8,536 nt of DNA, from positions 1-8,536 of the IMG/VR virus record IMGVR_UViG_2737471865_000006; one strand, given 5' to 3'. This DNA is from a virus (taxonomy: Duplodnaviria; Heunggongvirae; Uroviricota; Caudoviricetes). The number at the start of each line of letters is the position of its first letter. Position 1 is the first letter of the stretch. Below the pieces are notes generated by a model. That model did no database searches. It was not told the DNA's origin and saw only the letters and a program-made list of their open reading frames with translations. The position numbers and the translations under genes were made by a program. This document shows, piece after piece, positions 1 to 8,536 of the stretch.

Positions 1-12
1 TTCACCGGATGC

Positions 13-699
13 TTACGTTTTATGTGCATGCAGCTCATCAATAATGGCGCAGTGGATGTTCAGACCATCCAGGTTGTTTGCATCCGAGGAAAGCGGTTCA
101 AATTTTGATGCGCTCTGCTCCTGGTAAATCGCCAGCTTGTTGAAATCAAACAACCGCCCGAGTGTCGACCGGGCTTTTCTGACCATATTTTTGGCGTCTT
201 CAAACACAATTCTGGCCTGGTCACGCGTGGTGGCGGCTGAATACACCTCAGCACCGCCTTCACCATCTGCCCCCGTCATATACAGGCCGATACCCGATGA
301 CAGAGTTGATTTTGCGTTTTTACGGGCGACTTCGTTGTACGCCGTCCGGAACCGGCGCACCATCACCGGACGTCCGCTGCCATCGCTGCGCATGACGACT
401 TCCCCGGTCTCTTCATTCACCAGCGGAATGACAAAACCAAAAATATTAATGAGGATAAATACATGCCAGTCCATCAGTTCAATGGGCTGGCCTGCCAGCG
501 CCCCTTTTACATGAGGCACAAATTTGTAGAAATTCAGGATGTGCTGCGCACGGGGTTCACTGAAATAAATCCCCCGCTCTTCGCCGTACTTCAGATCATC
601 AAGAAAACGCTGGCAGGCCAGGCGGACAAATTCGCCAGCAACAATTTCTCCTGCAACAACACGTTCGGCGTAGCGGATCCCGTCAGCCACTTTTGCCAT
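13..699 (-). CDS. Terminase large subunit, N-terminal ATPase region; frame closes with TAA at 13-15 after 228 codons
   Basis: Translation has a P-loop-like motif VARKNAKST and a Walker B-like motif CAIIDELHA. ATG at 697-699 overlaps the TGA stop of the upstream small terminase gene (TGATG). Full-length large terminases are roughly twice this length. Confidence 0.75.
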   Translation of the reverse strand: MAKVADGIRYAERVVAGEIVAGEFVRLACQRFLDDLKYGEERGIYFSEPRAQHILNFYKFVPHVKGALAGQPIELMDWHVFILINIFGFVIPLVNEETGEVVMRSDGSGRPVMVRRFRTAYNEVARKNAKSTLSSGIGLYMTGADGEGGAEVYSAATTRDQARIVFEDAKNMVRKARSTLGRLFDFNKLAIYQEQSASKFEPLSSDANNLDGLNIHCAIIDELHAHKT

Positions 700-1181
700 C
701 AGTCTCTCGCTTTTAAAAGCTCCGCCAGCGGATCAACATCATCCGGTCCGGCGATATTTACTTTAGCCCGGCTTGCCGGTGACATACCAAACTCTGCAAG
801 CATTGCCCGGATCCGCTTCCAGGCATCCGCTTTCATTGCCGCCGCGGGGTGCGCCTTAATCAGTACATCACCGCTCTGCGTTTCCGTGCGGTAGGTATAC
901 CCCTCAACATCGAGTGTTTCGCAGTGATGCCGATATTCGGTGTAGGCTTCCACCAGCAACTCGAGCGCACGCGCATCAAGCTGAGAAATGATCCCTTCCG
1001 CATTCAGCTCTTCCGCCATTCGCCTGAACCAGTACTTCCCCTGAGCCCCTAAATGCTGCGGAATTTTAGGAAGACCTTTTTCATCCTTTTTAGCGGTTTT
1101 TTTGTGGTCTTTAACGGGGCGCTTTGAGGGGTTGCCTCGAATCAAATGCAGGCGTGGCGGGGTTTTCGGAGGTCCTGACAT
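699..1181 (-). CDS. Terminase small subunit, P27 family
   Basis: 160 aa; basic N-terminal region followed by ...AWKRIRAMLAEFGMSPASRAKV, typical of P27-type small terminases; sits directly upstream of the large terminase with stop/start overlap. Confidence 0.8.
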   Translation of the reverse strand: MSGPPKTPPRLHLIRGNPSKRPVKDHKKTAKKDEKGLPKIPQHLGAQGKYWFRRMAEELNAEGIISQLDARALELLVEAYTEYRHHCETLDVEGYTYRTETQSGDVLIKAHPAAAMKADAWKRIRAMLAEFGMSPASRAKVNIAGPDDVDPLAELLKARD

Positions 1182-1329
1182 AATCGGTCTTACCTATCAA
1201 TCGTTTGTTCACATTTCCAAAAAAAAGTTTTCGAACCTGCGGCGATGTGAGGAAGGGTCAGGCGGCGGTACTGAGCAGCCAGGGTTGCAGAGATTTGACC
1301 CGCCCCTCCCTTACAGATTAGAACGATTA

Positions 1330-1680
1330 TCAGTTGATGCGTTCACGCGCTGTTTTCGCCTTGTGGCATGGCCAGCACAGGCTCTGCAGATTACCGTCTG
1401 CATCCGTACCGCCATGCGCTTTCGGAATGATGTGGTCCACAGTTCTGGCTTCAACGGCTCTCCCATTGCGCAGGCAGTTCTGACACAAATGATTATCACG
1501 CTTCAGTATGCGCGCACGTATGGCATCCCATTTCGAGCCATAGCCACGCTGGTGGCGGCTCAGTCCGCGTTGATGTTGTGTCCAACCTTCGCCGCGATGC
1601 TTATCGCAGTAGCCAGAACTGTCCGTCGTTGTGCCTGCACAGCCTCGCTTACGGCATGCACGAGGGATTTGTGATGGCAT
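1330..1680 (-). CDS. HNH endonuclease, packaging-associated
   Basis: Cys-rich N-terminus (CRKRGCAG...CDKH) and HNH core (DHIIPKAHGG...N...CWPCH). Start chosen at the ATG at 1678-1680, which has an AGGAG ribosome-binding site 9 nt upstream, rather than the ORF-track start at 1716. Position immediately before the small terminase matches HK97-type packaging modules. Confidence 0.8.
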   Translation of the reverse strand: MPSQIPRACRKRGCAGTTTDSSGYCDKHRGEGWTQHQRGLSRHQRGYGSKWDAIRARILKRDNHLCQNCLRNGRAVEARTVDHIIPKAHGGTDADGNLQSLCWPCHKAKTARERIN

Positions 1681-1722
1681 AGAATTTCGCTCCTCTAAAA
1701 AATATTCTGCTCTCACCGTCGG

Positions 1723-1905
1723 TCAGTTCTGCATACACTGCCGGACACTATCAACAATTTCACAGACCTGAGAAGCTGTATCGAAAAGCTGGCGCGCCTT
1801 ATCCAGGCTGACGCAGCCCACCAGGAAAAAAGGCACCAGTATCGCTACCAGTGCCCATTTCACCGCCGTTCGCGGCATTCTGTGTGTCCAGTGTTTTCGC
1901 GTCAT
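1723..1905 (-). CDS. Small lipoprotein, 60 aa, function unknown
   Basis: Basic N-region, hydrophobic core WALVAILVPFF and lipobox LVGC; GGTGGTGA ribosome-binding site before the ATG; short Cys-containing mature part. Not proline-rich like lambda Rz1. Confidence 0.5.
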   Translation of the reverse strand: MTRKHWTHRMPRTAVKWALVAILVPFFLVGCVSLDKARQLFDTASQVCEIVDSVRQCMQN

Positions 1906-1989
1906 ATCACCACCAACGCACAGCCCAAATCAGAACAGCGACCGCCACAAGGCGGATTGCAAAGGCCGTTGCCCGAATAAAATCAGCAC

Positions 1990-2187
1990 TCATCTGTTTA
2001 AATAAATTGTTGTGTATGCAACCAGTGCAGTACAAATAATCCATGCAACTGGCGTCAGTATATGTCTGATGCCCCGGCATACCGCGATGATTTTTGCGGC
2101 ATCATCAGCCCCCTGCGGGGTGGTTTCTGCTTTTATCATCAGATCATCTCCAAATTTATCTTTCGTCGTGTTAGGCTTTACTGGCAT
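1990..2187 (-). CDS. Hypothetical small protein with C-terminal transmembrane segment
   Basis: ATG at 2185-2187 preceded by GGGGA; C-terminal hydrophobic stretch PVAWIICTALVAYTTIY. No recognisable family; coding status uncertain. Confidence 0.3.
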   Translation of the reverse strand: MPVKPNTTKDKFGDDLMIKAETTPQGADDAAKIIAVCRGIRHILTPVAWIICTALVAYTTIYLNR

Positions 2188-2229
2188 GAATGATCCCCAT
2201 GCGCATTCACAAAATGAATCCATAAACAC

Positions 2230-2261
2230 AAAGCCCCGATTGCTCCAACAACCGGGGCTTT
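2230..2261 (-). terminator. Intrinsic terminator-like hairpin downstream of the endolysin gene
   Basis: Perfect 9-bp stem AAAGCCCCG / CGGGGCTTT (2230-2238 with 2253-2261) and a 14-nt loop; T-rich flank on both strands. Confidence 0.5.
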
Positions 2262-2268
2262 GCTTTAT

Positions 2269-2646
2269 TTATCGTTTCAACTGAAAGTGAGGCCCATCCT
2301 TTAATGACCGCCACTCACCGCCCCATTCGATGGGGGTATTCAGCTCTGCGGCAGCCTGCTTAAATGCCTGCGCTATTTTCTCATACAGAGGCAAGTCCCA
2401 TGACACCTGGCTGCCAACCCAGGCAACAACATCCACCGCATCACCGGTCAGGTGGCGGCTGTTCATGGTCTGGCTTTTCCCTTCCGCGACCAGCTGTTTC
2501 TGGCGTTCTTTCGTGCGCAGCCCTTCCGTAATACCGAAATCAACCTCCGTCAGCTCCAGCGCACGGCGAACGACAGCAACCAGCTGTGGTTTAACGCCCT
2601 CCAGATTCTTTTCGCTGCGACGACTGAATCTGAATTTACCCGACAT
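2269..2646 (-). CDS. Endolysin, peptidase M15 family (phage T5 Lys-like L-alanyl-D-glutamate peptidase)
   Basis: Motifs KFRFSRRSEKNLEGVKPQL, RRALEL, SRHLTGDAVDV (His...Asp zinc-ligand spacing) and a C-terminal His match the T5 endolysin pattern as recalled. ATG at 2644-2646 has GAGGTGA upstream and lies 2 nt after the stop of the preceding gene; a GTG at 2652 is an alternative start. Confidence 0.8.
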   Translation of the reverse strand: MSGKFRFSRRSEKNLEGVKPQLVAVVRRALELTEVDFGITEGLRTKERQKQLVAEGKSQTMNSRHLTGDAVDVVAWVGSQVSWDLPLYEKIAQAFKQAAAELNTPIEWGGEWRSLKDGPHFQLKR

Positions 2647-2648
2647 AT

Positions 2649-2924
2649 TCACCTCAACAATGGAAAGATTTTTGTGACGTTCCCGCGTGCGCGTATCACC
2701 AGCACGCAGAACAGCAGGTTAAAAAACACTTCCAGCCAGCCCGTTGCTAACGGGCGACCACACAGATAGCTGAGGGGCGCAAAGGCATACAGCAGCATCA
2801 GCAACCAGGCCAGCCATGACATCAGCGGTTTATGTCTGGAATCACGACGACGATAAAAAAAGAGCGTCAGCACGATAACCGTGCATAACGCCACATTCAG
2901 CAATCCGGGAAGGTTACTTAACAT
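2649..2924 (-). CDS. Small membrane protein in lysis cassette (holin/antiholin-like), about 91 aa
   Basis: ATG at 2922-2924 preceded by GGAGGAGG; three hydrophobic segments; overlaps the holin 3' end by 11 nt and is coupled to the endolysin start. Confidence 0.55.
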   Translation of the reverse strand: MLSNLPGLLNVALCTVIVLTLFFYRRRDSRHKPLMSWLAWLLMLLYAFAPLSYLCGRPLATGWLEVFFNLLFCVLVIRARGNVTKIFPLLR

Positions 2925-3306
2925 TGCCGCCTCCTCCACCCCGCAGGCGGGAGAACAGGCCGGACACCAGCGATGCAATATCCTGCTGGTGGATGAACGA
3001 GAGAATCTTCACCGACACCACCGCCACCAGCACCGCACACAGTGCATCCGCCGATGTACCGTCATAACCTGTTTTTGATGCAATCCAGGCTGACAGCACA
3101 TGCGCACCCAGCACGCCAACGATAAACGACACCAGAAAATGCGCCGCCACACGCCAGGCTGAAAGCGCCTGCGGCATCGTTGCCACAAATAACGCCCCAG
3201 CGAACGCCCCAAACACAATCCCGAAATCCGTTCCGGTAAACAGCCCGAATACCGTCGCCCCGCCGAGCGCCGCAGCCGTACCGGAACCGGACAAGGGTTC
3301 AGACAT
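2914..3306 (-). CDS. Putative holin, about 130 aa, multi-pass membrane protein
   Basis: ATG at 3304-3306 with AGGAG 7 nt upstream; Gly/Ala-rich hydrophobic helices; first gene of the lysis cassette, directly upstream of the endolysin. Confidence 0.6.
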   Translation of the reverse strand: MSEPLSGSGTAAALGGATVFGLFTGTDFGIVFGAFAGALFVATMPQALSAWRVAAHFLVSFIVGVLGAHVLSAWIASKTGYDGTSADALCAVLVAVVSVKILSFIHQQDIASLVSGLFSRLRGGGGGNVK

Positions 3307-3320
3307 ACTTTTTCTCCTGT

Positions 3321-3346
3321 AAATAAAAAAGGGCCACTGTCGGCCC
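3321..3346 (-). terminator. Intrinsic terminator immediately upstream of the holin ribosome-binding site
   Basis: Minus-strand RNA GGGCC-GACAGU-GGCCC followed by UUUUUUAUUU (3321-3330); the holin Shine-Dalgarno begins about 4 nt after the U-run. Confidence 0.55.
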
Positions 3347-3432
3347 GTAAAAAAACAACACCCCGTCAAAGGCACCCGCAGATACCTTTTGTGTGGTGTT
3401 ATCTGATGTGATGTGCGCCGGACGTGGCGCGG

Positions 3433-3460
3433 ATATAAAAAAGGCCCGCCGCAGCGAGCC
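3433..3460 (-). terminator. Intrinsic terminator downstream of the AraC-family gene
   Basis: Minus-strand RNA GGCUCGC-UGCG-GCGGGCC (7-bp stem including one G-U pair, tetraloop) followed by UUUUUUAUAU; about 25 nt after the stop at 3486. Confidence 0.6.
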
Positions 3461-3485
3461 TGTTTTCAATGAGTGCAAAATTCAA

Positions 3486-4229
3486 TTATTCTTGAGTAAC
3501 ACTTAAACTCATCTCATTGAATGCAGCCATCCTGTAACCTGCCGGTGTAACACCAAAATAACTCCTGAATACGCTGATAAAATAAGATGTAAAATTATAG
3601 CCACACTGAGCAGCGATTCTGTTGATGGCGCAACGAGATTGATTCAACAGCATTGCTGCCATTCTCATTCTCTCTGTAAGCAACAACTCACTGAAACAGG
3701 TGCCTTCTTCTTTCAGTCTTTTTTTTAACAAACTTTCACTGATACATAACCGCGAAGACACATCTCTCAGAGTCCAGTTTGCTGCAATGTCCGTACGAAA
3801 CAATGCACTAAGCCTGTCACTAATATTGCCAATACACGCGGTCAGAAACGACGAAAACATTTTCTCTGATGAGAAAAACGCCAGACACGAAAAGGAAAGC
3901 ATTTCCGCTAAATTGTCCGTATGAATCTTTTCCTCACAAAGATAATCAATCAGGATGCCCATCAATTCTGCCTTGGGAAAACTCACGCAAAGATATCGTG
4001 GTATTTGCCGGACTAAAACTACATCCTGTTTTTCGTCTCCACACAACAGGTAACGGATAATTGTCGATTCACTGAGACTTATTCGCCGAAAACATTCCGA
4101 AAAGGGCAATAACGATCCAGCTCCCCCCCTGACAAGAAGTGCACTACCACTTTCCAGAGAGAGCTCTTTTCCTTCAAAGAGCACAACAAACGGGGAATGA
4201 ACAAAAACAACAGAACAAGCTTCATTCAT
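3486..4229 (-). CDS. AraC/XylS-family transcriptional regulator, AppY/AdiY/GadX-like group
   Basis: C-terminal helix-turn-helix signature SESLLKKRLKEEGTCFSELLLTERMRMAAMLL...QCGYNFTSYFISVFRSYFGVTPAGYR; N-terminus MNEACSVVFV resembles the AppY family as recalled. Start set at the ATG at 4227-4229 (247 aa), not the TTG at 4289. Markedly AT-rich relative to flanking phage genes. Confidence 0.8.
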   Translation of the reverse strand: MNEACSVVFVHSPFVVLFEGKELSLESGSALLVRGGAGSLLPFSECFRRISLSESTIIRYLLCGDEKQDVVLVRQIPRYLCVSFPKAELMGILIDYLCEEKIHTDNLAEMLSFSCLAFFSSEKMFSSFLTACIGNISDRLSALFRTDIAANWTLRDVSSRLCISESLLKKRLKEEGTCFSELLLTERMRMAAMLLNQSRCAINRIAAQCGYNFTSYFISVFRSYFGVTPAGYRMAAFNEMSLSVTQE

Positions 4230-4262
4230 ATCAATTGCCCTGACATTACTGGTCACAAGATA

Positions 4263-4290
4263 AGTATATATCGATTTACAAAAATACAAG
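4263..4290 (-). promoter_or_regulatory. Candidate sigma70 promoter for the AraC-family gene
   Basis: Minus strand -35 CTTGTA (plus 4285-4290), 16-nt spacer, -10 TATACT (plus 4263-4268), about 30 nt upstream of the ATG. Match by eye only. Confidence 0.35.
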
Positions 4291-4350
4291 CCGAAAGACC
4301 AGTATTCGCAACCACCAGCGCGTTTAACGTCCTGTACCGTTTTTCAGGCA

Positions 4351-4377
4351 TAAAAAAACCCGCTCAGTGGCGGGTTT
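4351..4377 (-). terminator. Intrinsic terminator between the ORF6N gene and the AraC-family gene
   Basis: Minus-strand RNA AAACCCGC-CACUGA-GCGGGUUU followed by UUUUAUGCC; palindromic, so it could act in either direction. Confidence 0.55.
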
Positions 4378-4452
4378 AAGCTGTTTGGCGTAGTAACCAC
4401 TCTTAACAGGATATTCAACTTTTTACGATCGTAAAGCGTTCGGGGAAAATTT

Positions 4453-4758
4453 TTAAAACCGTTCCAGAGTGCATACCATCGCATCGGCGGGTAGTTTTTC
4501 CGTGAAGAGGATGAGGTGCTTTGTACGCGGTGCAACTAAGTTACTTTGAGTAACCTTGTTCTTAAATTCCCGCAACTCAGCCCCTTCCAATTTGAAGTAG
4601 TGTTTCCCACAAACAAAACGCTCGGCATTGCGTGTATAGTTCACTTTGATGTTATTAGTTTCGGTGCCATAAAGTTGTGCCAAAAGCTCGGTAGTAATGA
4701 CAGGGATTTGGTTATGGGTGATCGGGGAAAGAGTTTCAACTGAGATTTGAATAGCCAT
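4453..4758 (-). CDS. ORF6N-domain protein (phage antirepressor-like DNA-binding domain), possibly C-terminally truncated
   Basis: Motif LAQLYGTETNNIKVNYTRNAERFVCGKHYFKLEGAELREFKN ... LFTEK fits the ORF6N pattern; AAGGA ribosome-binding site 7 nt before the ATG; first ORF downstream of tR'. Confidence 0.5.
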   Translation of the reverse strand: MAIQISVETLSPITHNQIPVITTELLAQLYGTETNNIKVNYTRNAERFVCGKHYFKLEGAELREFKNKVTQSNLVAPRTKHLILFTEKLPADAMVCTLERF

Positions 4759-4911
4759 AGGATGATCCTTTTTCTATGTGAATCATCACCACTGCTGACG
4801 CCAATCAGTATGGTGGTGAACTGTGCAGGGTTGGCGTAACCGGGAAAAAGGAACCGGCGCGGATCGCTCCGCCCCCACACAGCCCACCATTGAGATGTGA
4901 CAGTGCAAACG

Positions 4912-4937
4912 ACAATAAAAAAGACGCTGGCGCGTCT
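4912..4937 (-). terminator. tR'-like terminator of the short late transcript
   Basis: Minus-strand RNA AGACGC-GCCA-GCGUCU followed by UUUUUAUUGUC, about 70-75 nt downstream of the predicted pR' start site. Confidence 0.55.
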
Positions 4938-4997
4938 GTTGTCGCCTTTTTCATCCGGGACGCCAATCCCGACGCCAGATTTTGCTGGCGCGTGAGG

Positions 4998-5027
4998 AAT
5001 ATAGCCCCGGACAATGTGTCTGGTCAA
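4998..5027 (-). promoter_or_regulatory. pR'-like late promoter immediately downstream of Q
   Basis: Minus strand -35 TTGACC (plus 5022-5027), 18-nt spacer, -10 TATATT (plus 4998-5003), starting 5 nt after the Q stop. The initial transcribed region has hairpins CGCCAG-N6-CTGGCG (4973-4990) and CGGGA-N6-TCCCG, as expected for a Q-utilisation/pause region. Confidence 0.5.
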
Positions 5028-5031
5028 GCTC

Positions 5032-5418
5032 CTACATGATTCGTTCTACGTATCTGTCCATCTCCAGTCGGATATCAAGCATCATCAACATGCCATCAAT
5101 AACCCCTTCCGCTTTCTGCAGGCGCTTGCCAATACAGGTATCCGAACACCCATGCTTTCGTGCCAACCCCATAAAAGTCATTCCACCTACGTAATAATCC
5201 ACCAACAAATCGTGCAAATCCTGATTTTTCTTGTTCAACCGGGCCATACAGCCACAAATTATCATTGCATCATCATCAGAACACTGAGGGCGTGATTTCA
5301 CTTTCGGCGGGATTAATCCTTTAAAACCAGCAGCGATTGACGCCCATGACACATCTTCGTGATTGTTCGCAGCCCATGCTCCCCACCGCTCCATAACCTG
5401 CTGAATATCACGCACCAT
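5032..5418 (-). CDS. Late-gene antiterminator Q (phage 82 / QuuD-like)
   Basis: [21 protein letters not shown]...[14 protein letters not shown]...LLVDYYV...[16 protein letters not shown] pattern of Q antiterminators. ATG at 5416-5418 with AGGTGA 5 nt upstream; overlaps the rusA 3' end. Confidence 0.85.
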
Positions 5419-5779
5419 CGTTATCACCTGTAATTTCGTAAATCTTCACGCCCAACCGCCCACCAGGAACAGGCAGTCCGCGCACAATATTGATTTCATC
5501 AAACTGCTCGTCGTCTATGAGAAGTCCGGCATGCGTCAGCGCATCCAGTGGTGCCTTCAGGATATTGTCCAGGTCGCGGCGGCGCTTATCCGGTGGCTCT
5601 GCAATAATTTTTATTGCCAGCCTTCCGGACAGGTTTAATTTCAACCGCTGCTGGCGAACAATTAGTGCCACATCACGGCGATAACGCTCCCCTGCTTTTG
5701 ATACAAAATATGTGTTGCCACGACGTCGCCAGTAAGTATTCACCGTCGGCGGATAAGGCAAAACAAACTCTATACGCAT
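5408..5779 (-). CDS. rusA: Holliday junction resolvase RusA
   Basis: [16 protein letters not shown]...[29 protein letters not shown] matches RusA conserved motifs; AAGAGG ribosome-binding site 7 nt upstream. Confidence 0.85.
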
Positions 5780-5791
5780 CAGTAACCTCTT

Positions 5792-6841
5792 TTACCCGAG
5801 CACGCCGGTTGCAAAGGCGTGATCAAGAAAACGAAAAATTAAATCAACCTGGGAACCATGCTTTTCTTCGAACGCCAGCGGATCCGCATGAAGTTCGTTG
5901 TGATGTTCCCGGCACAACGGTAGCGTGAAAATATCGTGGGCCTTTGTTCCCATCCCTCCCTGACCGTGACCAATCAGGTGATGGGGATCGTCGGCTGGCT
6001 GACCACAACACGCACACGGCTGTGTCTTCACCCAGCGCGTATATTTCTCATTTACCCAACGGCGACGTTTAGGTCGCCTCATGAAAGATTCCGGAGACTC
6101 CGGATCAACGGTGATGCATACCACCGTCTTTTCCTGTGGTGGGTTCTGTTGCTGGTGGGCATGAGGCAACGGCGCAAGATTTTTTGTGCGCTGCTTCAGT
6201 ATGCTGGTGGCGGTCTGCTCTCCCGGTACGATGTCGCTTTCGCGGTACAAGGAGCGGATTTTTTCCGCACGTAACCCCAGAGAACGACGTAATACTGCCT
6301 CCGGAAGCGCGTCCGCCACCTGATTGCAGACCGCCCACCAGGATAATTCAGCCAGCGACAATTCCCGCTCCTGCGTGCCATTCATTGCATGGCGTATGAC
6401 GTCAATCATCCATGCTGACAGGTTTTGATGAGCAAGTTGCCCGAGTGATTCGGATGTCTGGTCACGCAACTGGTTGTCGCAGTGCCAGCACAACACCATC
6501 GCGCCGGTACCGTAACGATGTATGACGATTTCACTGTGATGATAGTCACCATGAGGCCACTGGCAGGATTTGACATGACGCAACAGCCAGTCAGACAGTG
6601 CCCCAGCGCCGCCAGCAGCACGAATCACCCGCTCATCGCTGAAAAATGGCAGTAATGATTTATCCTCCGCCAGCGGCTGGCGAACGGCAGGGACGACTCC
6701 GGACGGCAGACCGCGCATGCTTTTCGGTTCAGGCTCCACCAGCACTCGAGGGTTATGAAATACTTGCATGGATTCACGGCCCGGCCTAAGGACCACCAGC
6801 CCGAGTTCCGGTACCAGAACAGGTCGAAGTAATATCCGCAC
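5792..6841 (-). CDS. DUF968-like prophage protein (YdfU-like) with C-terminal Cys/His HNH-like motif
   Basis: Large nin-region ORF with C-terminal CACCGQPADDPHHLIGHGQGGMGTKAHDIF...CREHHNELH. Start proposed at the GTG at 6839-6841, which has GGAGGT upstream and follows the upstream gene's TAA by 1 nt, giving 349 aa. The ORF-track start at 6913 would overlap the upstream gene. Confidence 0.6.
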   Translation of the reverse strand: MRILLRPVLVPELGLVVLRPGRESMQVFHNPRVLVEPEPKSMRGLPSGVVPAVRQPLAEDKSLLPFFSDERVIRAAGGAGALSDWLLRHVKSCQWPHGDYHHSEIVIHRYGTGAMVLCWHCDNQLRDQTSESLGQLAHQNLSAWMIDVIRHAMNGTQERELSLAELSWWAVCNQVADALPEAVLRRSLGLRAEKIRSLYRESDIVPGEQTATSILKQRTKNLAPLPHAHQQQNPPQEKTVVCITVDPESPESFMRRPKRRRWVNEKYTRWVKTQPCACCGQPADDPHHLIGHGQGGMGTKAHDIFTLPLCREHHNELHADPLAFEEKHGSQVDLIFRFLDHAFATGVLG

Positions 6842-6842
6842 G

Positions 6843-7121
6843 TTACCTCCAGATCCGTTGCTGGTATGTGCGGGATGGGCGCGGTGGGCGTTCGGAATAA
6901 GGGAGCCTGACATAGATTATCCAGTGACGATAATCGAGGCTGAGGGCTTTCTTAATCTCGTATCCGCGTCTGCGATAGTTATGAATTAGCCATTCGGCCT
7001 GTTCTTCAGTACATGGGTCATGCTGGAACCAGTCAGATTTGAAAGTGCGGGAACGCCGCCCGTGCCTGCTGGCAAAGACGGCAGAATCATCAGAATTGTG
7101 TAATTTGGTATCGTGCGCCAT
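6843..7121 (-). CDS. Hypothetical small basic protein, 92 aa, upstream of the DUF968 gene
   Basis: ATG at 7119-7121; ORF-track start at 7202 rejected because it overlaps the terminator at 7194-7218; stop is translationally coupled to the DUF968 start. No recognisable family. Confidence 0.45.
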   Translation of the reverse strand: MAHDTKLHNSDDSAVFASRHGRRSRTFKSDWFQHDPCTEEQAEWLIHNYRRRGYEIKKALSLDYRHWIIYVRLPYSERPPRPSRTYQQRIWR

Positions 7122-7193
7122 CGGTTGTCTCTGCTGGCGCAGCAGGTGCCAGTTGTTCAGGCTGGCGTGCGAATTGTAAACCAGAATGCCAGG

Positions 7194-7218
7194 AAAAAAC
7201 AAAAACCGCCGAAGCGGG
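7194..7218 (-). terminator. Intrinsic terminator with UUCG tetraloop
   Basis: Minus-strand RNA CCGC-UUCG-GCGG followed by UUUUUGUUUUUU. Confidence 0.55.
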
Positions 7219-7417
7219 TATGCTAAAACAAACTGAAAGTAATATACCGGACTTGTAAAGGAACGATAGAATAATTATTGGATTAAACCCTGACTCAATC
7301 CAGATTTCATAGGCAACAACTACGGACTAATCATCACAGTCATGTTTGATAGACTTAGTCCACATTGGGTGAGGGTTTACGGCGTTTTCACTAATAATTT
7401 ATCGTCCAAGCTATACA

Positions 7418-7810
7418 CTACTGCCCTGTTTTAACGAAGTTTTTAAAGGAAACAACTGCCTGATAGGGGTTTGGTTGACAGCCAAACATATTATCGCAAA
7501 AAGGCTTGATGAAAATTCTTGAGGATCCATCTTCATTTGGCATTTTACTCACTTGATAAGCGAGGAATGGACTATTTGGAGAGGGATTATAAGTGGAAAT
7601 TAGCGTGTCTGTCGCCGTTTGAATTTTCCATGAGGAATTATTAGCCAACCAGAATTGCGCTCGTTTCCAATAAAAGTCACATTGCTTTTCATCATTACAT
7701 GTTAGTGGCTTCATTGCTTCTGCTTTCAACGCTGGATCGACCTTTGCTGCACACCCTCCCAACATTACTGTTGCAATCATTACACCTGCGACTAAAACAA
7801 GTTTCTTCAT
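7418..7810 (-). CDS. Secreted lipoprotein, 130 aa, unknown function (AT-rich cargo gene)
   Basis: Signal peptide MKKLVLVAGVMIATVMLGGC with lipobox LGGC; four further Cys in the mature part; lower GC than flanking genes; bracketed by terminators on both sides. Confidence 0.7.
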   Translation of the reverse strand: MKKLVLVAGVMIATVMLGGCAAKVDPALKAEAMKPLTCNDEKQCDFYWKRAQFWLANNSSWKIQTATDTLISTYNPSPNSPFLAYQVSKMPNEDGSSRIFIKPFCDNMFGCQPNPYQAVVSFKNFVKTGQ

Positions 7811-7861
7811 CTCCCTGCCCCATCAATAAAAGTTCGGTTCTCTAATAACTAGAGTTAATCA

Positions 7862-7884
7862 ACGGAAAAAACGCCGAAGCGGGT
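7862..7884 (-). terminator. Terminator-like hairpin downstream of hok
   Basis: Minus-strand RNA CCGC-UUCG-GCG followed by UUUUUUCCG, about 70 nt after the hok stop; short stem; nearly identical in sequence to the 7194-7218 element. Confidence 0.45.
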
Positions 7885-7953
7885 TAAGTGCGGGTGCGTT
7901 GAGGATGCCTGACACATCAGAGGTGGCGAGGGATTTCTCCCCCGCCAGGTCTC

Positions 7954-8109
7954 TTACTCCTCAGGTTCGTAAGCTGTGAAGACAGCGACCTCCGTCTGGC
8001 CGGTTCGGATTCGTACCTCGCAGAGGTCTTTCCTCGTTACCAGTGCCGTCACAATGACGGTTAAACAGATGACGATCAGGGCGATTAACATCGCCTTTTG
8101 CTGCTTCAT
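7954..8109 (-). CDS. hok: Hok/Gef-family type I toxin (small membrane-depolarising peptide)
   Basis: 51 aa MKQQKAMLIALIVICLTVIVTALVTRKDLCEVRIRTGQTEVAVFTAYEPEE, which matches HokD/HokC (Gef) as recalled; ATG at 8107-8109 with AAGGAG 8 nt upstream. Confidence 0.85.
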   Translation of the reverse strand: MKQQKAMLIALIVICLTVIVTALVTRKDLCEVRIRTGQTEVAVFTAYEPEE

Positions 8110-8166
8110 AGCCTGCTTCTCCTTGCCTTTCGGCACGTAAGAGGCTAACCTAGATTTGCCGTTCAT
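7954..8166 (-). CDS. mok: Mok-like overlapping reading frame (in-frame N-terminally extended Hok)
   Basis: In-frame 19-codon extension MNGKSRLASYVPKGKEKQA upstream of hok, ATG at 8164-8166 with GAGG 9 nt upstream; same arrangement as mokC/hokC as recalled. Confidence 0.55.
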   Translation of the reverse strand: MNGKSRLASYVPKGKEKQAMKQQKAMLIALIVICLTVIVTALVTRKDLCEVRIRTGQTEVAVFTAYEPEE

Positions 8167-8230
8167 AGATTGAGCCTCAGATTAATGTTAAGCGTCTTGC
8201 AGGACGCGTAATGTTAACTGGGGCTTTTCT

Positions 8231-8266
8231 CTATCTGCCTTTGGTGTTCATGCCTGAGGCAGATAG
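8231..8266. repeat. Perfect 10-bp inverted repeat in the hok leader region
   Basis: CTATCTGCCT (8231-8240) and AGGCAGATAG (8257-8266) with a 16-nt loop. Adjacent are two TAATGTTAA direct repeats (8183-8191 and 8209-8217) flanking the hairpin GCGTC-N6-GACGC (8192-8207). Confidence 0.6.
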
Positions 8267-8465
8267 CCTCAAGCACCCGCAGCAATTCTACTTAACTCAC
8301 CTCACCTCGCCAATATAAAATCAATCAGAAAGGCGATCCATAAGAACAACAGCAAGGCAATAAATTGCCATTACAGCGTAAGCATCCGGTGAAGGCGCAT
8401 TGCCGGCCGTCGTAAACCACGCCATTCTGCAGGCTCTTCCTTTATATGCAAAAGTGAGAAACCTG

Positions 8466-8536
8466 ATGGCAAAAAAAATGACCCCGGCGCAGCGACGCCA
8501 GCACTACGACGCCTGGCGCGCCTTCTCCGCTGACGA
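8466..8536 (+). CDS. 5' end of an unidentified plus-strand gene running off the window
   Basis: ATG at 8466 then MAKKMTPAQRRQHYDAWRAFSAD with no stop before the window end; divergent from hok. Only 23 codons visible; weak ribosome-binding site. Confidence 0.3.
   Translation, partial: MAKKMTPAQRRQHYDAWRAFSAD

Follow-up and report, generated by a model that had tools for sequence, protein, structure and literature searches.

A terminator next to the holin gene of a phiP27-like prophage closes a conserved boundary module and probably insulates the lysis genes

Introduction

How are the lysis genes of a prophage kept silent when genes directly upstream, on the same strand, are transcribed? The question is raised by an 8,536-nucleotide stretch of a Caudoviricetes virus (positions 1 to 8,536 of IMG/VR record IMGVR_UViG_2737471865_000006; hereafter, the window), which is the late-control and early late region of a phiP27-like lambdoid Escherichia coli prophage. 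In this window, an intrinsic terminator, here called term2, stands immediately before the gene for the first holin of the lysis cassette. A preliminary description of the locus held that the two elements lie too close for a promoter to fit between them, that lysis gene expression must depend entirely on antiterminated transcripts from upstream, and that four terminators in series between the late promoter pR' and the holin gene form an unusually stringent gate. We find that the last 140 nucleotides (nt) before the holin gene are a mosaic boundary module, made up of two terminators and a structured spacer, and consider it probable (roughly 0.8) that term2 is an ordinary Rho-independent terminator which insulates the lysis genes in the lysogen and is overridden by the antiterminator Q after induction.

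A terminator before the holin gene fits ordinary lambdoid control and, as such, is already known biology. Late genes of lambdoid phages, including the lysis genes, require Q-mediated antitermination at the terminator tR', and during lysogeny pR'-type promoters are constitutively active, with their transcripts ending at tR' (PMC7547250). The questions addressed here are therefore what term2 adds to this arrangement and where the sequence that carries it comes from.

Results

The holin junction

On the minus strand, the junction reads UUUUUUUAC GGGCC GACAGU GGCCC UUUUUUAUUU AC AGGAG AAAAAGU AUG UCU and comprises three features:

3321..3346, minus strand: intrinsic terminator term2, with the hairpin GGGCC-GACAGU-GGCCC at 3346-3331 and the U-run UUUUUUAUUU at 3330-3321
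3314..3318, minus strand: holin Shine-Dalgarno (SD) sequence AGGAG, read from the sequence, 7 nt before the ATG and 2 nt past the U-run
2914..3306, minus strand: holin 1, 130 amino acids (aa), Phage_holin_8 (Pfam PF16931, E 4.7e-23; RefSeq 'putative holin')

The arms of the term2 stem (3346-3342 and 3335-3331) form 5-6 base pairs, including 5 G-C pairs (the scanning tool counts 6, with one G-U), around a loop of 4-6 nt, and the hairpin has a free energy (dG) of -9.4 kcal/mol. A GC-rich stem-loop is thus followed directly by a U-tract, as in intrinsic terminators, and the opposite strand holds no terminator at this site. The preliminary description had placed the end of the U-run at 3321 and the SD near 3317, and both positions are correct. 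Its claim that no promoter can be accommodated here also holds, given that the 2 nt separating the U-run from the SD (3318-3314) cannot contain -35 and -10 elements. The same junction, TTTTTTATTTACAGGAGAAAAAGTATG, is found again in most Phage_holin_8 loci.

The spacing is meaningful only if the holin start is correctly placed. The protein, which stands at the head of the lysis cassette, matches PF16931 over the full length of the model, with residues 1-124 aligned to model positions 1-121 of 121; since model position 1 aligns to residue 1, the ATG at 3306 is a secure start. The in-frame ATG further upstream, which serves as the start in the phiP27 record, falls within the terminator stem and reads ACG in the window. 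In that record (L001, NC_003356, 4053-4487), the holin accordingly begins within the terminator stem, 42 nt ahead of the conserved ATG, and at 3727-3924, where relatives have a small DUF3927 gene on the plus strand, a minus-strand hypothetical open reading frame (ORF) is shown. Both annotations appear to be mistaken. The comparison settles where the Phage_holin_8 gene truly starts, with the phiP27 start 42 nt too early.

Late promoter and antiterminator

From where, then, is the holin gene transcribed? All genes across the 8.5-kb window lie on the minus strand, in the order RusA, Q, pR', an IsrK-like leader with tR', a C4 RNA, an ORF6N remnant, a terminator, an AraC-family gene, a further terminator (term1), ~95 nt of structured non-coding sequence, term2, Phage_holin_8, Phage_holin_3_7, an M15 endolysin, HNH, TerS, and TerL. 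The stretch from Q to the terminase corresponds to locus L003, retrieved with a query of 1.2 kb (window 3250-4450), and its annotation was taken from there. As in a late operon, the two holins, the endolysin, HNH, TerS, and TerL are co-oriented, all on the minus strand, and the terminase genes downstream are a P27-family small terminase followed by the large terminase. The elements at the upstream end are as follows:

5032..5415, minus strand: antiterminator Q of the Q21 family, 127 aa (Pfam PF06530, E 6e-53, full length)
4998..5027, minus strand: candidate late promoter pR', TTGACC-18-TATATT (sigma-70 consensus; 5 nt past the Q stop codon)
4952..5004, minus strand: c4 a1/b1 target motif (Rfam RF03163, 52.2 bits), overlapped by the IsrK-family leader
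4917..4991, minus strand: IsrK-family pR' leader RNA ending at tR' (hairpin 4937-4922 plus U-run; Rfam RF01394, 79.4 bits)
4809..4894, minus strand: C4-type antisense RNA of the P1/P7 immunity-I type (Rfam RF01695, 74 bits, above the gathering score)
4453..4758, minus strand: ORF6N-domain antirepressor fragment (Pfam PF10543; a pseudogene in RefSeq, C-terminus missing)

The Q gene is intact, and its product resembles the phage 21 Q structures 6P18 and 6JNX (E 2.6e-7). In a consensus scan of the late strand from 2800 to 5500, TTGACC-18-TATATT is the only good sigma-70 match, and the IsrK match begins 7 nt past its -10 element. The Q gene thus directly precedes the promoter, and a short leader running to tR' directly follows it, which is the layout of a Q-dependent late operon. 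The segment 4809-5004, taken with the ORF6N fragment, resembles a P1/P7-type immunity-I module or a Gifsy-1 isrK-anrP-like module placed at the start of the late operon and apparently decayed.

Given that no promoter fits before the SD, that the only good sigma-70 match lies directly after Q, and that Q is intact, holin expression most plausibly depends on Q-antiterminated transcripts, with Q presumably acting at the candidate promoter at 5027-4998. Q21-type Q proteins block the formation of RNA hairpins at the exit channel of the polymerase and, once loaded, render it resistant to any number of hairpin terminators; structures of such Q-loaded complexes have been solved (6P18 and 6JNX). The dependence of lysis on antitermination is sound, yet it is textbook lambdoid biology.

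Four terminators in series

If antitermination is indifferent to the number of hairpins, does it matter that there are several? We counted terminators under a strict rule (a stem with 5 or more pairs, of which no fewer than 3 are GC, a loop of 3-8, and T at 4 or more of the 5 positions that follow the stem). Between the Q stop and the holin ATG, the late strand carries 4 such terminators, compared to 0.35 +/- 0.59 in 300 dinucleotide shuffles, none of which reached 4, and the opposite strand carries 0. The series of four is therefore confirmed and not due to chance. Besides tR' and term2, they are:

4349..4377, minus strand: terminator closing the antirepressor-remnant unit (hairpin 4377-4356, dG -11.5)
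3433..3461, minus strand: term1, after the AraC-family gene (hairpin 3461-3442, dG -14.9)

All four hairpins are intergenic, with free energies from tR' to term2 of -8.7, -11.5, -14.9, and -9.4 kcal/mol, and all are predicted to terminate. Each closes a unit of its own, namely the pR' leader, the C4/ORF6N antirepressor remnant, the cargo gene, and the boundary module. The cargo gene is the following:

3486..4229, minus strand: AraC-family regulator, a low-GC cargo gene, or moron (Pfam HTH_18/HTH_AraC)

Its GC content is ~41%, and the GC fraction is 0.41-0.46 over 3400-4400 versus 0.55-0.62 over the lysis genes (2900-3400). As is typical for morons, the gene has a terminator of its own, term1, 25 nt past its stop codon. 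Window 3250-4450 recurs at 100% identity in E. coli E21845/O/A and in several bovine and environmental strains, and the flank with the AraC-family gene is present in only some viral contigs. At the same site, phiP27 carries stx2e, SerU-LTIIb carries tRNA genes, and the related locus L006 carries TerB/DUF3927.

Could the four terminators have been assembled in series as a dedicated, exceptionally stringent safety gate for lysis? Four strong same-strand terminators within 1.7 kb, far above chance expectation, would be in keeping with this idea. However, each belongs to a separate, independently mobile unit, and the number is nothing out of the ordinary among relatives. In 70 distinct related loci, the 2 kb preceding the holin contain the following numbers of strict terminators on its strand:

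0 terminators: 2/70 loci
1 terminator: 3/70 loci
2 terminators: 11/70 loci
3 terminators: 41/70 loci
4 terminators: 13/70 loci

Three or four terminators are thus present in 54/70 loci; the module was the selection criterion and the loci are mutually related, so that the counts describe this phage group rather than phages at large. In one of them (L004), three terminators lie within 200 nt of the holin start codon, and the VT2-Sakai record itself annotates three terminators between pR' and stx2A. Furthermore, antitermination of the Q21 type is processive and not specific to individual terminators, as indicated by the 6P18 and 6JNX structures and by the established mechanism. Since Q of this type suppresses hairpin-dependent termination generally, additional terminators scarcely tighten control over a polymerase modified by Q; their contribution lies in shielding against other promoters. 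A purpose-built gate is accordingly very improbable.

Of the preliminary description, the series of four terminators stands, exactly those four (4937-4922, 4377-4356, 3461-3442, and 3346-3331) having been recovered under our stricter rule, whereas the view of an unusually stringent gate finds no support. The dependence of the holin on antiterminated upstream transcripts is the most plausible arrangement, but to call it entire is too strong, because intrinsic terminators leak and because 7/69 (~10%) of related junctions lack the U-tract.

A conserved boundary module

Where does term2 come from? The sequence between the last two terminators is itself structured:

3347..3441, minus strand: structured non-coding stretch between term1 and term2 (fold statistics and homologues)

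It consists of a first hairpin, hp1 (GCGCC/GGCGC, ~3430-3415), a CA-rich linker, and a long second hairpin, hp2 (~3404-3353). Together with the flanking terminators, these parts form a module of ~140 nt (term1, hp1, CA-rich linker, hp2, and term2; window 3318-3461), which precedes two unrelated holin families nearly unchanged in many enterobacterial prophages. The module is unannotated in the records that we compared and matches no Rfam family. A 151-nt query matches 587/5,426 complete E. coli genomes, and the module is common to phiP27, SerU-LTIIb (in two copies), and L006; copies are also present at L004 3481-3619, L005 3501-3610, and L002 3597-3760 and 1910-2048. In some matches, the module is followed by a class II, EssD-type holin (89% identity over 3460->3318 in L004 and 75% in L005), with only the non-coding part matching; in L004 and L005, homology with the window stops at the SD, at window position 3318.

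The terminator itself is conserved before the holins of phiP27 and SerU-LTIIb and in dozens of viral contigs. Searching viral contigs by pattern, we obtained 92 distinct junctions, 69 with Phage_holin_8 and 23 with class II holins. The distance from the end of the stem to the ATG is 21-26 nt in 62/69 of the former and 45-47 nt in 23/23 of the latter. On the left, the neighbors vary between AraC-family gene, tRNA genes, DUF3927 small ORF, and CA-repeat expansions, and the core of hp2 plus terminator is nearly constant; within the terminator, the stem is kept and the loop varies (GACAGT, GCTGGT, GACAGA, GGTGAT, and GCTGGC). In four loci (L019, at ~7620-7720, L020, L082, and L091), the CA-rich linker is expanded to two to four tandem copies of ACACCAGAAA. 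A protein-guided holin search of one-genome-per-species contigs returned 5 loci, and relatives from Salmonella, Enterobacter, and Leclercia have a terminator of different sequence 60-110 nt upstream of the holin.

The left part of the module has a history of its own. Term1 and the next ~35 nt (window 3403-3462) are homologous to the terminator after the tRNA genes and to the 5' leader of stx2A/stx2eA in Shiga toxin 2 (Stx2) phages. The match in VT2-Sakai (21424-21483; L015 4501-4560) is annotated there as a terminator, and phiP27 has a copy of the term1 piece between tRNA-Arg and stxA2e (L001 2365-2406). In view of this homology to a toxin leader, what precedes the holin resembles a toxin or cargo junction that is 'empty' or has been put to new use.

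This history raises the possibility that the module is mainly a recombination linker for the exchange of cargo and lysis genes, its terminators being leftovers of tRNA clusters and DUF3927 units, with no selection for holin gating. The same sequence is found beside an AraC-family gene, tRNA genes, a DUF3927 gene, stx2e, and CA-repeat expansions on the left and two holin families on the right; homology breaks off sharply at window position 3402 in the phiP27/DUF3927 contexts and at 3318 in those with class II holins; term1 and hp1 have the homology to Stx2 phages just described; and the U-tract has been lost in some relatives. A linker is, however, compatible with an insulator and does not exclude insulation, and the conservation of stems with variable loops, along with a U-tract kept in ~90% of the junctions, suggests selection on terminator function. 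We thus regard a linker free of such selection as a possible, if rather doubtful, account. The tightness between the U-run and the SD is best explained by a fixed joint at which recombination linked the module to the Phage_holin_8 gene.

The same tightness invites another explanation, whereby the hairpin and U-run in the read-through late mRNA would act as a 5' untranslated region (UTR) element of the holin gene, either as a stabilizing stem-loop after processing or as a U-rich ribosomal protein S1/translation enhancer beside the SD, and tune how much holin is made and thereby when lysis occurs. Holin dosage sets lysis timing in lambdoid phages, and U-run and SD are a constant 2-3 nt apart in the Phage_holin_8 junctions, including those with another SD region (GTGGGAGG instead of ACAGGAG). 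Against this, the same module lies 45-47 nt from the class II starts, behind an unrelated spacer, and the predicted folds show no alternative pairing with the SD, all of which renders such an element quite improbable.

Is the structured stretch a small RNA?

The conserved structure of the stretch would also be expected of an RNA with a function of its own. Term2 might mainly be the 3' end of a small regulatory RNA (sRNA) of ~115 nt, composed of hp1, a CA-rich strand, hp2, a U-rich spacer, and the terminator, or, in a variant of this proposal, hp2 and the terminator alone might constitute an RNA derived from the 3' UTR of the DUF3927 gene in relatives. The RNA would be analogous to AgvB, AsxR, Pas, and StxS at a moron site, and insulation of the holin would be a by-product.

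Several observations point in this direction. The minus-strand RNA from 3436 to 3321 folds far better than its shuffles (z = -4.9), pairing is kept in 96.5% of cells across 22 homologues as opposed to 47-56% in slid controls, and hp1 contains one compensatory change (C-G to U-A). The succession of a hairpin, a U-rich spacer, and a terminator ending in a U-tail is reminiscent of an Hfq-binding module, prophage sRNAs are known at such positions (PMC4104026), and Pas sRNAs adjoin a holin/lysozyme operon (bioRxiv 10.64898/2026.05.13.724894).

Other results argue against an sRNA. Rfam has no credible match to 3321-3441, whether the whole window is searched at the gathering score or 3250-3520 at E <= 10; the best matches below the gathering score were TarB (E 0.13) and STnc100 (E 0.22, confined to the term1 hairpin). 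The published AgvB, AsxR, and EcOnc03 sequences (supplement of PMC4104026) are unlike the stretch, and the PasA, PasC, and PasD loci of E2348/69 give no blastn match to it. A consensus scan found no promoter-like site between term1 and term2 or upstream. For Sp5, whose stx2A leader is the homologue of the 5' part of the stretch, the text on differential RNA sequencing (dRNA-seq) reports two extra starts upstream of stx2AB, at a tRNA promoter past tR' and at the 5' end of StxS_S, and mentions none in the stx2A leader (PMC7547250). Covariation is not significant, as the single double change was reached by 116/500 shuffles; the test is limited in that the search pattern used to gather the 22 homologues already prescribes part of the 3' arms.

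A role as a sponge for GcvB through the CA-rich linker was considered and rejected: the duplex with the R1 seed (-18.9 kcal/mol) was matched by 25% of shuffles and 9% of background 32-mers.

Beyond conservation, nothing speaks for an sRNA in the stretch between the last two terminators, and we consider a small regulatory RNA ending at term2 unlikely. A broader version, in which the whole ~140-nt module (3461-3321) is a functional RNA, be it an unnamed sRNA or a lysis-cassette insulator with a role beyond termination, for example, as a processed Hfq-binding RNA, appears slightly less likely still.

Other genes of the window

The remaining lysis genes follow holin 1 directly:

2649..2927, minus strand: holin 2, Phage_holin_3_7 (Pfam PF05449, E 6e-22), overlapping the end of holin 1
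2269..2646, minus strand: M15 peptidase endolysin (Pfam PF13539 and RefSeq annotation)

At the other end of the window, a toxin-antitoxin locus of the hok/sok type occupies 7954-8278. The Rfam sok match (8278-8104, 111.7 bits) overlaps an ORF at 8166-7954, of which the C-terminal 51 residues (MKQQKAMLIALIVICLTVIVTALVTRKDLCEVRIRTGQTEVAVFTAYEPEE) resemble the Hok toxin. Upstream of the nin/Q region, a minus-strand ORF of 130 aa at 7418-7810, located in an AT-rich stretch, encodes a lipoprotein-type signal peptide with a lipobox (VMLGGC) and is possibly another cargo gene.

Discussion

Collectively, our results suggest that a conserved non-coding module, lodged between a cargo insertion zone and the lysis cassette in phiP27-like and other lambdoid prophages, has term2 as its 3' end. 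In the lysogen, term2 would stop polymerases arriving from three sources, namely leak-through at tR' from the constitutive pR'/IsrK-type promoter, the antirepressor unit, and the promoter of the AraC-family gene, so that holin, second holin, and endolysin would not be made. In Gifsy-1, some transcripts from the IsrK promoter pass the IsrK terminator without Q (PMC4825925), and an insulator further downstream would therefore be useful. Upon induction, the Q21-type antiterminator would load onto polymerase at pR', and the Q-loaded enzyme would read through all four terminators into the lysis and terminase genes.

Several points weigh against the proposal that term2 insulates the lysis genes. An active promoter of the AraC-family cargo gene is assumed, and a sigma-70 scan found no consensus promoter upstream of 4229, with only weak AT-rich -10-like hexamers visible by eye. 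The absence of a U-tract from 7 of the 69 Phage_holin_8 junctions implies that the terminator is not indispensable, and in the class II version the stem is weaker, the closing G-C pair missing in 6/22 sequences. Finally, the conservation of the module could stem from its recombination history rather than from selection for insulation, which we nonetheless take to be the likely selected function of term2. The junctions devoid of a U-tract form a subgroup (L016, L021, L028, L041, L079, L093, and L098) in which the hairpin GGGCCGTCAGTGGCTC is kept and GGCTCAGATTTACAGGAG stands in place of the U-tract, with no canonical terminator before the holin.

The locus provides a clear example of how lambdoid lysis genes are held silent while cargo is expressed, with Q overriding any number of intrinsic terminators. 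It also suggests that prophage-borne regulators and toxins upstream are transcriptionally insulated from lysis in lysogens, which bears on toxin release without lysis; transcription from the cargo promoter Pstx1, for instance, yields toxin without phage lysis. A literature search for sequence strings of the module matched a cloning primer and nothing else. The Stx2e prophages of porcine strains carry the same 130-aa holin with the same terminator/SD junction (primer KanR_FW), and a 2025 study found this holin to be required for the fluoroquinolone-induced (SOS) rise in extracellular Stx2e (PMC12571312). For the annotation of prophages, including Stx2e and LT-II phages, the module offers a sharply bounded landmark of the boundary between cargo and lysis cassette.

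Among known systems, the late control of lambda, 21, and 82 and of 933W and VT2-Sakai is organized like that of the window: the Q gene stands immediately before a constitutive promoter, from which a short leader runs to a terminator, and cargo, lysis, and terminase genes lie farther downstream in the same orientation. Additional intrinsic terminators between pR' and the lysis genes are likewise shared, and the third VT2-Sakai terminator, before stx2A, is homologous to term1. In the window, by contrast, Q is short (127 aa) and only distantly related to Q21, the leader is of the IsrK/c4-a1b1 type, not lambda 6S RNA or StxS, and an AraC-family regulator takes the place of a toxin as cargo.

PhiP27 shares 92% identity with the window from position 3402 through holins 1 and 2 into the endolysin, an identical terminator/SD/ATG junction, and HNH, P27-family small terminase, and large terminase genes in the same order. 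The two differ directly upstream, where phiP27 has stx2e and a DUF3927-type small ORF in place of the hp1, CA-rich linker, and AraC-family gene of the window. The Gifsy-1 isrK locus (antQ - PisrK - IsrK terminator - orf45 - anrP - isrJ; PMC4825925) also combines a Q-family gene, an IsrK-family RNA, and an antirepressor-type gene; in the window, however, the antirepressor is truncated and a C4 antisense RNA is present, and the leaky IsrK terminator is a feature described for Gifsy-1. The sRNAs AgvB, AsxR, EcOnc27, StxS, and PasA-D are short and structured, end at intrinsic terminators, and are encoded in the Q-to-lysis region of lambdoid prophages, which is also where the stretch between term1 and term2 lies, but the stretch has no sequence or Rfam similarity to AgvB, AsxR, Esr41, or PasA-D.

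Juhala et al. in 2000 reportedly described morons as cargo units that are autonomous, each equipped with a promoter and a terminator. That morons bring both elements has also been noted by Cumby et al. 2012 (PMC3594210). The AraC-family gene conforms to this picture in its deviant GC content, its downstream terminator, and its presence/absence polymorphism among related phages. The last terminator, in contrast, is not the moron's own; term2 is part of a conserved module attached to the lysis cassette, which travels with the genes that it probably insulates.

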